NCBI GenBank assembly: GCA_025963875.1
Contig: JAOPZY010000189.1
Coordinates: 1-35,026 of the forward strand
DNA: 35,026 bases
Reading direction: 5' to 3'
Source of the DNA: Actinomycetota bacterium
GTDB taxonomy: Bacteria; Actinomycetota; CADDZG01; JAHWKV01; JAOPZY01
In this document: positions 29,024 through 34,774 of the stretch, piece after piece
Layout: every line of letters starts with the position of its first letter
Numbering within the stretch: position 1 is the first letter of the stretch
Translations under genes and position numbers: made by a program
Notes under the pieces: model-generated
The model's input: the letters and a program-made list of their open reading frames with translations, nothing else
The model's database searches: none
Told to the model about the DNA's origin: nothing

Positions 29024-29317
29024 GATCAAGCCCTCGGACGATTAGTACGGGTCGGCTGAACGCATTGCTGCGCTTACACCTCCCGCCTATCGACCCAGTC
29101 GTCTGCTGGGGTCCTTACCGGGTGTTACCCGTGGGAGCCCTCATCTTGGAGTGGGCTTCGCACTTAGATGCTTTCAGCGCTTATCCCTTCCGAACGTGGC
29201 CAATGAGCAGTGCCCTTGGCAGGACAACTCACACACCAGAGGTTCGTCCGTCCCGGTCCTCTCGTACTAGGGACAGCTCTCCTCAAGGCTCCTGCGCGCA
29301 TGGAGGATAGGGACCGA

Positions 29318-29592
29318 CACGATTGTTACCGCCCTCCGGCACCGTCGCCGACGGGGGGCCAGATCATTTCTGCCTGGCTCTGCATGTCGCCATGCAGGTC
29401 GGACCATATCTTCACCACCTTTGCGGGTGGTGTTCGGCATATGGTCTCTGAGGATTCCGGGCCCCGTAGAGCCCGGCCTTTCCTGCTGATTTTCCGCACC
29501 GCTCGGATTGTCACTGACCTAGTGGGGTCAGTACCTGCGGATACTCGGACGTTCCAGCATATAGCCGAATTTATAGACAGCGCGGTCAACTC
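29318..29592 (-). mobile_element. Group I intron L2604 (275 nt, ORF-less)
   Basis: Between GAGACAGU and UCGGUCCC; ends in G; IGS GACCG-C-GCUGUCU pairs with 5' exon AGACAGU (U.G at splice site) and 3' exon CGGUC; core UGCUGG/AAUCAGCAG, CAGAGACCA/GAUAUGGUC. Confidence 0.93.
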
Positions 29593-29603
29593 ACTGTCTC
29601 GCG

Positions 29604-29962
29604 CATGTAATTCCCCGCATTACTGCGGGCATAGACTATACCTCCACCCTATTTCTAGGGGCCGGCGTGTTATGGGATCCATAGTTTTGCCTTGCGGCGA
29701 TGATCCCATCCCTTCGTTGAGTTCCGAAGGAGTCGTTACGGGGGCCAGCAAACCCTTGCTACGCAGATGCTTCTCGACATCTGCGGCGAATATCCGCTTC
29801 GATTTCGAATAGTTTAGGGTCGAAAAGGCGCCAAATTGCAACGCCCTCTTGCTGGCCTTCCCTCGGTATTGCCCACCACCTTGCAGTTCGGCTTCAAGTG
29901 GGGGTTTCACCGATATGAGCCGGAGGACATCCAGGGATTACTCCCTGGAGACGCAGCGATCT
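29604..29962 (-). mobile_element. Group I intron L2593 (359 nt, IA-like core, no intact ORF)
   Basis: Between AGAACGU and CGCGAGAC; ends in G; IGS UCGCU-GCGU; core AUCGGUG/AAUACCGAG, GUAACGACU/GUAUAGUC. Confidence 0.92.
29740..29826 (-). pseudogene. Remnant of a single-motif LAGLIDADG (I-CreI-like) endonuclease C-terminus in P6 of L2593
   Basis: Reads FSTLNYSKSKRIFAADVEKHLRSKGLLAP then VTT, resembling the I-CreI C-terminus as I recall it (IAALNDSKTRKTTSETVRAVL); no LAGLIDADG motif left. Confidence 0.55.
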
Positions 29963-29981
29963 ACGTTCTAAACCCAGCTCG

Positions 29982-30019
<38 letters not shown>

Positions 30020-30055
30020 CCTGCTCCAGCCCCAGGATGCGACGAGCCGACATCG

Positions 30056-30365
30056 CACATGTCTCCACCGTTTCCGGTGGTGCAGACTATATCTTCACCC
30101 TCTCTGACCCAGAGTAGGGGTCGGCGTATTGTGGCGGCCATAGATTTGTCCCTTGCGGAACGAGACTCGCCACCTCGGCCTTGCGGCCTCAGTCGTTACG
30201 GGGTCACTTGCGGAAGCTGTGACATGGGTCTTTGCAGCGTGGTGCTGCGCTTCCGACAGACTTCCCACGGTATTGCCCACTGCCCTCCTGTGGGGTGACA
30301 GTTCAGGGGTTCACCGTTATAAGCCGATACCAATACGGCATCTCTGCCGCTACACCCCAATGTTG
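30056..30365 (-). mobile_element. Group I intron L2500 (310 nt, IA-like core, ORF-less)
   Basis: Between GGCACCU and CGAUGUC; ends in G; IGS ACAUU-G-GGGUG; core AACGGUG/AAUACCGUG, GUAACGACU/GAUAUAGUC. Confidence 0.93.
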
Positions 30366-30603
30366 AGGTGCCAAACCGGTCCGTCGATATGGACTCTTGG
30401 GACCGATCAGCCTGTTATCCCCGGGGTACCTTTTATCCGTTGAGCGACGGCCCATCCACATGGGACCGCCGGATCACTAGGCCCTGCTTTCGCATCTGCT
30501 CGACTTGTAGGTCTCGCAGTTAAGCTCCCTTGTGCCCTTGCACTCGACAGCTGATTGCCGACCAGCTTGAGGGAACCTTTGGGCGCCTCCGTTACAGTTT
30601 GGG

Positions 30604-31523
30604 CTCTCTGTTAGCACGGCAGCTTGTACTTCATCTCCTGGATCACATACGGATCCACGATACTCACGAAGCCATCGACTTCAGCGGATGGGATGTACAT
30701 CTGAAGCCCATCCACTTGCGCTCTCAAGTTCGTGCGAATCGAGAAGTCCCGCTCGAGGAACCACTGCAACATGGTTACCTCATCGGGCCGAAAGGCTTGC
30801 GTATTCAGATACAAGCCACGGCACGACCGAGACTTCCGGGAGCCGTCGTCCATGAACCACACCGCCAAGGCCAGCGGAGTCAAGGTGAGATCCGGGGGTA
30901 CAACCTTCCGCCCCTCATAGAAGCGGTTTCGGAACTCACCCAATTCGGGATGCGACACGGTGGCGAAGCCGACATTCATCGACTGCGTCCCAAGTCGATT
31001 CCCTTTGAGACGAGAGGCTGGCGGCGTCAGGACCCAGCTCGACCATTCCGAGTACTTCCAGGTGACGTACTCGATTTGGCGTACTGAGTGTTCTACCTTC
31101 AGTCGTGCCCAGCCCTGAGCATTCTGCTTTTCCAGATGCCCGTCTCCGAGAAGCAGCCCGACAAGGATCTCGCGCTGACGACTCGTAAGGAACAACTCCT
31201 GCTTCAGCCTTGCGATGGCCCTGGTGTTCATGGACCCCGTTGCCGTCTCGGGGTCATTTCTGCCCCGATCTGCACGTCGCCGTGCAGGTCAGACCATCCC
31301 ATCATCCGACCTCTCAGTCGGAGCCCTCGTTGTGGTCGTTGGGGTAGGCCAAGATCTGGCCCAACCTGCTGATTTTCCGCACCGCTCGGATTTTCACTGC
31401 CCACACCCCAAGTCTAATGACGAGGGGTGACAAAAAAGGGCTAGTACCGTCGGATTCTCGGGAGTTCCAGCATACGCCGAGGGTTTTATTTCACATGGTT
31501 ACCCATGATTCGCCCCCAAATTG
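30604..31523 (-). mobile_element. Group I intron L2262 (920 nt) carrying a homing endonuclease gene
   Basis: Between GGUCGCCU and CCCAAAC; ends in G; IGS UUUGG-GGGCGA; core UGCUGG/AAUCAGCAG, AACGACCA/GAUGGUC. Confidence 0.93.
30611..31231 (-). CDS. Double-motif LAGLIDADG homing endonuclease (LAGLIDADG_2 / I-SceI-like), 206 aa
   Basis: Motifs ILVGLLLGDG and LALAVWFMDDG, plus LYLNTQAF; uninterrupted ORF inside intron L2262. Confidence 0.93.
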   Translation of the reverse strand: MNTRAIARLKQELFLTSRQREILVGLLLGDGHLEKQNAQGWARLKVEHSVRQIEYVTWKYSEWSSWVLTPPASRLKGNRLGTQSMNVGFATVSHPELGEFRNRFYEGRKVVPPDLTLTPLALAVWFMDDGSRKSRSCRGLYLNTQAFRPDEVTMLQWFLERDFSIRTNLRAQVDGLQMYIPSAEVDGFVSIVDPYVIQEMKYKLPC

Positions 31524-31834
31524 AGGCGACCGCCCCAGTCAAACTACCCACCTGGCACTGTCCCTCACCCGGATCACGGGTGTGGGTTAGGGACCCAACA
31601 CATGCAGAGCGGTATTTCAAGGTTGGCTCCACCCGAACCGGAGTCCGGGCTTCACAGCCTCCCGCCTATCCTACGCAACACATGTCAAGTCCCAATACCA
31701 AGATGTAGTAAAGGTCCACGGGGTCTTTCCGTCCTTCCACGCGTAACGAGCATCTTTACTCGTAGTGCAATTTCGCCGAGTCCCCAGTTGAGACAGTGCC
31801 CAAGTCGTTACGCCATTCGTGCAGGTCGGAACTT

Positions 31835-32119
31835 CGTCTCAGTCCCCTGTTTCCAGGGGGACAGACTATGCCTTCATCTCGAACCACTTTGTTCGAGAGC
31901 CCGCGTATTGCTCTGTCCGTAGATTGACCGTGTTCCGGCCGGGACCAGAGCCTCACCCCGAAGGGATCAGTCGTTACGGGGCCATACTTCGCAATGAAGC
32001 AGAGGGCTTCCCACGGCATCACCCGCCGTCTATCGCCTCTCCTTGAAGGCAGCCGGTGTGGGCTCCGCCGTTATGAGCGGGTCTGCACACGGGATCGCTC
32101 CCGTGCAGGGCAATAATTC
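31835..32119 (-). mobile_element. Group I intron L1951 (285 nt, IA-like core, ORF-less)
   Basis: Between GUCGGGU and AAGUUCC; ends in G; GAAUU (P10) and GCCC (P1); core AACGGCG/AUGCCGUG, GUAACGACU/GCAUAGUC. Confidence 0.92.
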
Positions 32120-32139
32120 ACCCGACAAGGAATTTCGCT

Positions 32140-32439
32140 CGAAACGTCTGTTACGCGCCCTCATCTATCAGGCGGGGCTGGTCGTTTCCGCCAGCCTCCC
32201 TACGTCGCCGTAGGGTTCGGACCATCTCATCCTCTCTCCATCCATCTCGCAAGAGAGGGCCGGCGTATGGTCTCTGAGGGGTCACGAGGACTTCCCTGCT
32301 GATTGCCCGCACCGGACGGATTGTCACTTCCCAAAGGAAGTACCGCCGGATACTCGGGGTTTCCAGCAAACAGCCGGCTGCGCACCGCACCGTCACCGAT
32401 GCGGGGGGCAGCTCCCCTTGCCTGCCAAGGGGACCTTGT
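32140..32439 (-). mobile_element. Group I intron L1931 (300 nt, ORF-less)
   Basis: Between CUAAGGU and AGCGAAA; ends in G; short IGS GCU-GCC; core UGCUGG/AAUCAGCAG, CAGAGACCA/GAUGGUC. Confidence 0.92.
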
Positions 32440-32453
32440 ACCTTAGGACCGTT

Positions 32454-32691
32454 CGTCCAATTCCTTCATGTCGCCATGAGGCTGGACCATATCTTCACAG
32501 GCTCCTCTCGGAGTCTCGTGTCTGGCGTATGGCCTCTGAGGATTCCGGTCCCCTCACGAGGGCCGGCCTTTCCTGCTGATTGCCTGCACCGTCCGATTTT
32601 CACTGCCGGATAGGACCGGCGAGTACGGAGCGGATACCCAGGGTTCCCAGCATATAGCCAGATTTATTAACGTAACTACAACGGTCAACTT
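32454..32691 (-). mobile_element. Group I intron L1917 (238 nt, ORF-less)
   Basis: Between GUAACUAU and AACGGUC; ends in G; IGS GACCGUU-GUAGUUACG gives a 7-bp P10 and 9-bp P1; core UGCUGG/AAUCAGCAG, CAGAGGCCA/GAUAUGGUC. Confidence 0.94.
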
Positions 32692-33595
32692 ATAGTTACG
32701 GCCGCCGTTTACCGGCGCTTCAGTTCAGAGCTTCGCCCCGAAGGGCTGACCCCTCCCCTTAACGTTCCGGCACCGGGCAGGCGTCAGTGCATATACATGG
32801 TCTTACGACTTCGCATGCACCTGTGTTTTTAGTAAACAGTCGCTTGGGCCTTTTCTCTGCGACCCCCGGAAGCTCCGGCCGCAAAGGCCTTCACCTCCAA
32901 GGGCGCCCCTTCTCCCGAAGTTACGGGGCCAACTTGCCTAGTTCCTTAACCAGGGTTCTCTCGATCGCCTTAGTATTCTCTACTTACCCACCTGTGTCGG
33001 TTTGGGGTACGGGCAGCGCTCCAGCTCGCTAGAGGTTTTTCTTGGCAGCATGGGATCAGCCACTTCGCCTTAATCGGCTCGGCATCGCGCCTCAGAGTTG
33101 ATGGTCCCCTGGATTTGCCTGGGGGACCCCCCTACACGCTTACCCCGGCTCTACCATCGACCGGGTTGGCCTACCCTCCTGCGTCACCCCATTGCTGCCC
33201 TAATACCGGTCCGGTCGATTGGCCTCGTAAGGCCGCACTTAGGGACTGGATTCGGGCTGGGCGCGGGAGCACTGGTACGGGAATATCAACCCGTTGTCCA
33301 TCGACTACGTCTCTCGACCTCGCCTTAGGTCCCGACTTACCCTGGGCGGATTAGCCTTGCCCAGGAAACCTTGGGTTTTCGGCGGACGGGTTTCTCACCC
33401 GTCTCTCGCTACTCATGCCGGCATTCTCACTCGTGTGGCGTCCACGGCTCGCTTCCGCGGCCGCTTCACCCGCCACACGACGCTCCCCTACCCATCCCTC
33501 AATGAAGAGGAATGCCGCAGCTTCGGTATTACGCTTAGCCCCGCTACATTGTCGGCGCCGAACCACTTGACCAGTGAGCTATTACGCACTCTTTT

Positions 33596-33630
<35 letters not shown>

Positions 33631-34203
33631 CTTTGCGACTCGACATCCTTTCCCACTTAGCGTAATTTAGGGACCTTAGCTGGCGGTCTGGGCTGTTTCC
33701 CTCTCGACTACGGAGCTTAGCCCCCGCAGTCTCACTCCCGCGCTCTCAAGCATTGGCATTCGGAGTTTGGCTGAGTTCGGTAAGCTTGTAGGCCCCCTAG
33801 CCCATCCAGTGCTCTACCACCAATGCTAAACACGCGAGGCTGCACCTAAATGCATTTCGGGGAGAACCAGATATCACCGAGTTTGATTGGCCTTTCACCC
33901 CTATCCACAGGTCATCCGCCCGGTTTTCAACCCGAGTCGGTTCGGCCCTCCACGAGGTCTTACCCTCGCTTCAGCCTGCCCATGGGTAGATCACTCGGCT
34001 TCGGGTCTAGAACCTGTGACTGGACGCCCAGTTAGGACTCGCTTTCGCTACGGCTCCGGGATATCCCTTAACCTCGCCACAGATCGCTAACTCGCCGGCT
34101 CATTCTTCAAAAGGCACGCTGTCACGCCTTCCTGGTTACCCAGGAAGGTACGCTCCAACGGCTTGTAGGCAATCGGTTTCAGGTACTATTTCACTCCCCT
34201 CCC

Positions 34204-34237
<34 letters not shown>

Positions 34238-34774
34238 GCACTATCGGTCGCCAAGGAGTATTTAGCCTTACCGGGTGGTACCGGCAGATTCGCACGGGAT
34301 TTCCCTGGTCCCGCACTACTTGGGAGGAGCACCGGGAGGCTGTGAGGTTTCGGCTACAGGGCTGTTACCTGCTATGGCCCCTCTTTCCAGAGGGTTCGCC
34401 TACCTCAGAGCTTTGTAACTCCCTGACCCGACCGGTGTCGGGTCTGGTGCTTCCCGCAACCCCCACGTCGCAACGCCACCGGGCTATCACACGACATGGG
34501 TTTAGGCTGTTCCCGTTTCGCTCGCCACTACTCAGGGAATCACGGTTGTTTTCTCTTCCTCGCCCTACTGAGATGTGTCAGTTCAGGCGGTTCGCTTCCT
34601 GGCCCTATGTATTCAGACCAGGATGACGGCCCATGACGGCCGCCGGGTTCCCCCATTCGGAAATCCACGGATCAAAGCTTGTTTGGCAGCTCCCCGTGGC
34701 TTATCGCAGCCTGCAACGTCCTTCATCGCCTCTTGGCGCCAAGGCATCCACCGATTGCCCTTACTAACTTGACC

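Follow-up and report, generated by a model that had tools for sequence, protein, structure and literature searches.

Two Group I-like Introns Predicted to Flank an 11-nt Exon of Helix 93 in the 23S rRNA Gene of a Soil Actinobacterium

Introduction

Can a segment of 11 nt serve as the exon between two introns when nearly all of its bases are claimed by guide sequences and the same bases end up in the ribosome? This question is raised by a 23S rRNA gene of an uncultured soil actinobacterium, located in the window (the whole stretch of DNA that was analyzed, 35,026 nt). Insertions after positions 2593 and 2604 (Escherichia coli numbering) leave only a fragment of helix 93 between them. We take helix 93 to be part of the peptidyl transferase center, with A2602 presumably involved in peptide release and 2604 and 2605 presumably the pseudouridine sites of E. 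coli. Is so short an exon real, and could two introns be removed around it while the exon is kept?

Organization of the 23S rRNA Gene

By Rfam models, the 23S rRNA gene is on the minus strand of the window and is followed by a 5S gene; four group I intron matches fall within the 23S gene. All features described here are on the minus strand. Alignment by BLAST to E. coli rrlH, the numbering reference, resolves exon blocks equivalent to E. coli (Ec) 1–1919 (34774..32690), 1932–1968 (32139..32102), 1952–2263 (31834..31523), 2263–2501 (30603..30365), 2501–2593 (30055..29963, with the 3' end, a U, read at the junction), and 2605–2898 (29317..29028). The gap between the last two blocks is 645 nt and has an 11-mer inside it that is examined below. 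The assembly of this genome (G000) has one 23S copy, that of the window, and the gene should therefore be functional. Given that the MAG is only 94.6% complete, a second, intron-free rRNA operon may exist.

Group I introns follow an exon that ends in U and themselves end in G. From this rule and the alignment to E. coli, five insertions other than L2593 and L2604 are placed in the gene (34774..29028), with borders subject to an error of 1–2 nt: L1917 (32691..32454), L1931 (32439..32140), L1951 (32119..31835), L2262 (31523..30604), and L2500 (30365..30056). The gene thus has seven group I-like insertions, and further micro-exons of 14 nt (Ec 1918–1931; 32453..32440) between L1917 and L1931 and of 20 nt (Ec 1932–1951; 32139..32120) between L1931 and L1951. 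The L2262 intron includes an open reading frame (ORF) of 206 aa (30611..31231) that matches LAGLIDADG_2 (E 5e-37), the only intact homing endonuclease gene in this 23S gene. The L2604 and L1917 introns are 79% alike over 145 nt (29380–29516 vs. 32464–32605), and L2604 shares a 35-nt stretch of 97% identity with L2262 (29482–29516 vs. 31365–31399).

The Micro-exon and Its Borders

The 645-nt gap resolves into the L2593 intron (359 nt; 29962..29604), an 11-nt exon (29603..29593), and the L2604 intron (275 nt; 29592..29318). The exon, CGCGAGACAGU in the feature map and supported by alignment and junction reading, is CGCGAGACAGT on the minus strand of the window and the counterpart of Ec 2594–2604, which in rrlH reads CGTGAGACAGT; rrlH has A at 2602 and T at 2593, 2604, and 2605. 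Across the region the order is ...GAACGT / AGATCGCTGCGT...ACATG / CGCGAGACAGT / GAGTTGACCGCGCTGTCT...TCGTG / TCGGTCCC. Each insert follows a U of the exon before it and has G as its last base, at 29604 for L2593 and at 29318 for L2604.

On its own the 11-mer is no rarer than chance: allowing up to one mismatch, the 35-kb window has one match, versus 1.21 expected by chance. It is the context, judged from sequence, that makes the micro-exon real, namely its strand, its position in the 645-nt gap, the order of rRNA segments, and the borders seen in relatives. A search of 41 related genomes with the stretch 30060..29250 yielded 23 loci in which junctions were read, and intron borders are identical to the base in all 23. 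In a genome of the same genus (G001), the first insert is followed by the 11-mer and then directly by the 3' exon, with no second insert. In a member of the same family (G004), the 5' exon runs into the 11-mer, which is followed by the second insert, and the first is absent. Three others (G032, G014, and G010) have neither insert. Relatives with one intron or none therefore fix both borders to the base, and the proposal in a preliminary description of this DNA, that only 11 nt (2594–2604) separate L2593 from L2604, is borne out by the alignment together with these borders.

The micro-exon supplies helix 93 with its tip and its 3' strand, and with them the bulged A2602. In the Rfam LSU alignment, helix 93 has one A bulged out, at the position of A2602, in agreement with the earlier assignment of these bases to that helix and that residue. 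In the GNRA loop of helix 93, exon base 2596 occupies the free N position.

Structures and Guide Sequences of the Two Introns

The downstream intron, L2604, matches Rfam RF00028 with 60.4 bits (gathering score 50), with the core from P3 to P9 aligned. The match (29380–29636) overshoots the 5' border of the intron by 44 nt, running across the micro-exon and into the last hairpin of L2593, because the first hairpin of the model is fitted to that hairpin. Automatic annotation would consequently swallow the micro-exon. Across 18 short relatives, RNAalifold yields 83 pairs, of which 40 have compensatory changes. The internal guide GCUGUCU (29575..29581) can form a P1 of 7 bp with AGACAGU of the micro-exon (2598–2604), with a G-U pair at the splice site. 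The P1 is constant, and all 18 relatives have U-G at the splice site. Fifteen of the 18 were recovered with a search pattern in which this guide was obligatory; all 10 introns recovered solely by BLAST have it as well. A terminal G is seen in every one of these 10 introns and of the 18 aligned ones. A P10 guide, GACCG (29583..29587), can pair with CGGUC (2606–2610) of the 3' exon, a pairing available in some relatives only and lacking in many. We also looked for a recent donor of this copy of L2604. The best full-length match is ∼81% (G004, same family), with piecewise matches of 89–95%, and no recent transfer can be named.

The upstream intron, L2593, has no Rfam match at E values up to 10 in a search with 811 nt, and thus none to the group I model RF00028. 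Its fold was for this reason derived from relatives. RNAalifold on six relatives yields 82 pairs, 27 with compensatory changes, and helices in the order expected: P1, P2, P3, P4, P5, P6, two hairpins between P7 and P3', P8, and P9. The P3–P7 pseudoknot is beyond what RNAalifold can draw; P7 (GACU/AGUC), whose bases are constant, was assigned by eye. The covarying fold suggests that L2593 is group I-like. Its internal guide GCGU (29951..29954) can pair with ACGU (2590–2593) at the end of the 5' exon, with G-U at the splice site. In six of six relatives the 5' splice site has U-G and the P1 pairs are constant, whereas two additional pairs within the intron covary (AU/GC to CG/AU). The terminal G is present in nine of nine intron ends read.

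A second guide in L2593, UCGC (29956..29959), can form P10 with GCGA (2595–2598) of the micro-exon and covaries with exon base 2596. Among ten introns, the guide base is G in three of three cases in which 2596 is C, and A in five of seven in which it is U. The covariation thus fits eight of the ten, the exceptions being loci L013 and L015. Further contigs with both introns have UCAC as the L2593 guide and GUGA in the exon.

The guide for P1 of L2604 (GCTGTCT at 29581..29575 in DNA) and that for P10 of L2593 (at 29959..29956, with the comparative support just described) are where the preliminary description had predicted pairings with 2598–2604 and 2595–2598. Together the two guides cover 2595–2604, nearly the whole micro-exon. 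Since the two pairings meet at 2598, A2598 belongs to both, which was also part of that description. The calculated duplex energies are −8.3 kcal/mol for P1 and −7.5 kcal/mol for P10 of L2604, and −5.8 kcal/mol for P10 of L2593, falling to −3.2 kcal/mol without A2598. The guide region of L2593 also includes GAUCG (29956..29961; intron bases 2–6), which can pair with CGGUC at Ec 2606–2610, in the exon that follows L2604. This pairing, which would favor skipping, has an energy of −5.1 kcal/mol, about equal to that of the proper P10, and the sequence consequently leaves room for skipping. By our estimate, a 5-bp match over nine registers is not unlikely by chance.

Neither intron of this genome has a Pfam domain in its ORFs (87 and 96 aa in sense, 200 aa in antisense). 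Relatives of both introns that are ∼700–760 nt long have ORFs of the single-motif LAGLIDADG_1 type. For L2593, ORFs of relatives L013 and L103 match LAGLIDADG_1, and the one tested further (L013) is like I-CreI (E about 7e-25), I-MsoI, and I-CvuI (range about 1e-25 to 1e-15). The family of I-CreI is typical of L2593 group I introns, and this genome's own copy is without such an ORF. The L2604-type ORF tested is like halves of I-OnuI- and I-SmaMI-type enzymes. The 22-bp target of I-CreI presumably corresponds to about 2586–2607, which would place the whole micro-exon inside it and extend it three bases past the 2604 site.

Could the gap instead be misread, either as biology or as assembly? If the 645 nt were a single or nested composite element, the 11-mer would be a chance resemblance or a relic and 2594–2604 would be absent from the mature rRNA. 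The chance expectation of 1.21 such 11-mers in the window and an Rfam group I match that crosses the 11-mer both speak for this reading. However, each half occurs alone in relatives with the same borders and with the 11-mer continuous with the adjoining exon, and each has a complete, covarying fold and a terminal G to itself. Upstream of the 11-mer, the Rfam match consists of the terminal hairpin of L2593, which stands in for the first hairpin of the model. We therefore regard a composite element as extremely improbable. To an assembly artefact, in which reads from two strains, one carrying L2593 alone and the other L2604 alone, were fused at their common 11 bases, we give equally little credence. 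Both single-intron alleles do exist in related organisms, and one of them is in run X3, where a contig joins 29317 straight to 29593 and represents a near-identical allele with L2593 and without L2604. But independent Logan contigs bridge the micro-exon: a 606-nt DNA contig from run X1 spans 29387–29992 with no differences, and a 351-nt contig from X3, which is from another study, spans 29288–29638 with one difference. The same layout is present in 17 metagenome contigs and in the 1.05-Mb contig of a second genome (G085), and an overlap of 11 bases is shorter than the word sizes that assemblers use.

Distribution of Double Occupancy

Exact patterns were applied to the 113 genomes of the class to which this genome belongs; 69 of these matched none, with the region either unassembled or different in sequence. 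L2593 was matched in 13 genomes, by a pattern that misses introns not ending in CAYG, L2604 in 19, and the uninterrupted site in 15. Among the 44 scorable genomes, two have both introns (G000 and G085), 11 have L2593 only, 17 have L2604 only, and 14 have neither. Two doubles compare with about 5.6 expected under independence (one-sided Fisher p 0.017 for the 44 genomes, a value that overstates the deficit because related genomes are not independent), which is only a hint that in this class doubles are fewer than independent occurrence would give. In one relative of the class (G090), L2593-occupied and uninterrupted copies are both present (contigs C73 and C77), reflecting heterogeneity among rRNA operons or a mixed bin.

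In a scan of one genome per species, the 5' end of L2604 was found in 74 loci (L026–L099), mostly of Actinomycetota but also of Dormibacteria, Patescibacteria, Acidobacteriota, and Gammaproteobacteria. The junction between 2593 and 2594 is intact in 73 of these, and one, on the contig of G085, also has L2593. About half of the 74 copies are 690–760 nt long and likely include an endonuclease gene.

Among the metagenome contigs scanned, 17 match the double pattern, and these carry 13 different sequences. One of these (L113) is 96% like the window around the micro-exon and 89% in the L2593 intron. The introns of G000 and G085 are not each other's nearest relatives, so the double state must have arisen more than once, and its recurrence in 13 different metagenome sequences indicates that it is tolerated and persists through divergence. 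The double state is uncommon but recurrent.

Nine of the genomes are unpublished (G028, G007, G019, G030, G038, G035, G065, G082, and G103). In the class counts, they contribute G028 and G030 to L2593 only, G007, G035, G038, and G065 to L2604 only, and G082 and G103 to the uninterrupted site. In the fold alignments they contribute L005 (G028) for L2593 and L017 (G038) for L2604, and in the P10 comparison L005 (G028) and L013 (G030). The main conclusions stand without them, as G001, G004, G085, the 74 named records, and the metagenome contigs suffice.

Predicted Splicing of the Two Introns

We think it quite probable that helix 93 of this gene is host to two unrelated, autonomous group I introns, 11 bases apart, each with its own guide, free of endonuclease genes, and splicing independently. 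L2593 would come from a lineage that elsewhere carries I-CreI-type homing endonucleases and L2604 from one with a different, single-motif LAGLIDADG endonuclease; in this genome, the endonuclease gene would be lost from both copies or would never have been part of them. In L2593, the 4-bp P1, extended by two pairs within the intron, is predicted to hold the 5' exon while a 4-bp P10 aligns the micro-exon. In L2604, the 7-bp P1 would hold the micro-exon and the 5-bp P10 would align the next exon. Both ligations together would restore helix 93 with A2602. The two introns are predicted to self-splice independently of each other: as seven exon bases suffice for L2604 and four for L2593, either could in principle splice with the other present or gone, and the occurrence of each alone in relatives implies that neither needs the other. 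The scarcity of doubles would then arise mainly from how introns spread rather than from a conflict in splicing, since each insertion alters the edge of the roughly 22-bp target of the other endonuclease.

Among RNA runs, one has words from the stretch: X5, a soil metatranscriptome produced in the study that also yielded the best DNA holder. No joint in X5 can be assigned to this organism, and among the joints listed there is none from 29963 to 29603, from 29593 to 29317, or, as expected of skipping, from 29963 to 29317. Summed word depth in X5 is 1e5–1e6 in exon bins, where many organisms are summed, and 0–14 in intron bins, with uncovered parts carrying no evidence. Contigs of X5 at 29600–29781 (depth 5.9) and 29292–29394 (depth 8.4) hold intron sequence, which may derive from precursor RNA or from DNA carry-over.

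The strongest competitor to independent splicing, which we nonetheless regard as somewhat unlikely, is that the two ribozymes interfere on the 11-nt exon. Interference would force an order, most likely L2593 first because it is transcribed first, or lead to occasional skipping with dead ribosomes and a cost in fitness; ordered splicing and skipping were both raised in the preliminary description. Consistent with this, P10 of L2593 lies directly against P1 of L2604, with A2598 in both, while each has to dock in its own core, the P10 weakens from −5.8 to −3.2 kcal/mol when A2598 is withheld, the L2593 guide can reach 2606–2610 at −5.1 kcal/mol, and doubles are scarcer than independence predicts in the class and make up 1 of 74 among species genomes with L2604. 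However, the double state occurs in 13 metagenome sequences besides G000 and G085, and the divergence of L113, greater in L2593 than in the core, points to persistence. The alternative pairing of 5 bp over nine registers has the chance explanation estimated above, P10 is often dispensable in group I introns, and the deficit, which rests on related genomes, is also explicable by overlap of homing sites. A stronger form of this reading, which we hold to be rather unlikely, is that the exon is too short for both ribozymes to engage it at once, such that order is fixed, the deficit of doubles reflects selection against ribosomes that lack A2602, and the guides retained are tuned against skipping. 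If true, two catalytic RNAs would here compete in nature for a single segment of substrate in the heart of the ribosome.

It could also be that this is a decaying or unspliced copy, its introns retained or cut without ligation and its function supplied from elsewhere. The incompleteness of the MAG (94.6%) and the frequent failure of rRNA operons to assemble leave room for another copy, and the two RNA contigs do contain intron sequence. Yet the assembly has a single 23S copy. With the bacterial LSU model, the exons of this copy reach 1733 bits, relatives have exactly the same exon bases around helix 93, and both introns retain complete folds and guides. Decay is for these reasons very unlikely, and two introns that splice independently remain the reading that we prefer.

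Comparison With Known Systems

The locus has what characterizes tandem introns that flank a micro-exon: two complete introns, each found alone elsewhere, and a genuine short rRNA exon between them. A precedent is the 23S rRNA gene of Coxiella, in which two group I introns are reported around a 34-bp exon and splicing was shown. The two cases agree in being bacterial 23S genes in which a pair of group I introns encloses a very short exon. They differ in the length of that exon (34 in Coxiella, 11 nt here) and in that the one studied here belongs to helix 93, in domain V, and is nearly all claimed by guides, with one base common to both; splicing was demonstrated in Coxiella, whereas here it is predicted from sequence. 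Other literature that we found on very short exons between introns concerns organelles only.

The 23S gene of Synechococcus sp. C9 is described with introns at L1917, L1931, and L2593, and cyanobacterial L2593 introns are described as having a short P2 and P7.1/P7.2 extensions (PMC1995217). The fold derived here for L2593 agrees with that description in its short P2 and its P7.1/P7.2, and both genes combine multiple LAGLIDADG-associated group I introns, one of them at L2593 (PMC1995217). By our arithmetic, L1917 and L1931 of Synechococcus sp. C9 (PMC1995217) leave a 14-nt exon, and the same pair is present in the window. Unlike the gene studied here, that of Synechococcus sp. C9 is described with neither an L2604 intron nor a helix 93 micro-exon, and its introns carry endonuclease genes, of which the L2593 and L2604 of this genome have none (PMC1995217). 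The enzymes that ORFs of the longer L2593 relatives match at the E values given above, I-CreI, I-MsoI, and I-CvuI (PDB 1g9y, 1m5x, and 5a72, among others), are from introns of green-algal chloroplast LSU rDNA; in contrast to introns of the I-CreI type, the L2593 of this genome has no endonuclease gene.

Sites 2593 and 2604 are listed among the LAGLIDADG_1-rich insertion sites of 23S genes in CPR bacteria, and introns at several of the numbered CPR sites are stated to be previously unreported in bacteria (PMC11270868). From the order of that listing, we take 2604 to be among the previously unreported sites (PMC11270868). The main text of that study makes no mention of joint occupancy of 2593 and 2604, and we found no printed description of the double, which its supplements may list (PMC11270868). 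Unlike in that study (PMC11270868), the host here is an actinobacterium, and the L2604 intron is present in 74 species genomes of several phyla. An intron position so far described in CPR bacteria is thus spread over Actinomycetota and other phyla.

For most readers, the locus will be one more example of tandem rRNA introns. Its wider use may be as a compact natural test case, of ∼650 nt, for two self-splicing RNAs that share a substrate, as the 3'-exon helix of one intron and the 5'-exon helix of the other abut on 11 bases that become the A2602 bulge. It also has a practical side, in that standard Rfam annotation swallows the micro-exon, misses L2593 entirely, and would mis-draw the locus. 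Both insertion sites are already published and tandem introns around exons of 14 and 34 bases are in print, and the layout extends this known kind of tandem intron. What is new is the pair of sites, the shortest such exon that we found, the near-complete claim of that exon by two guides, and the actinobacterial host.
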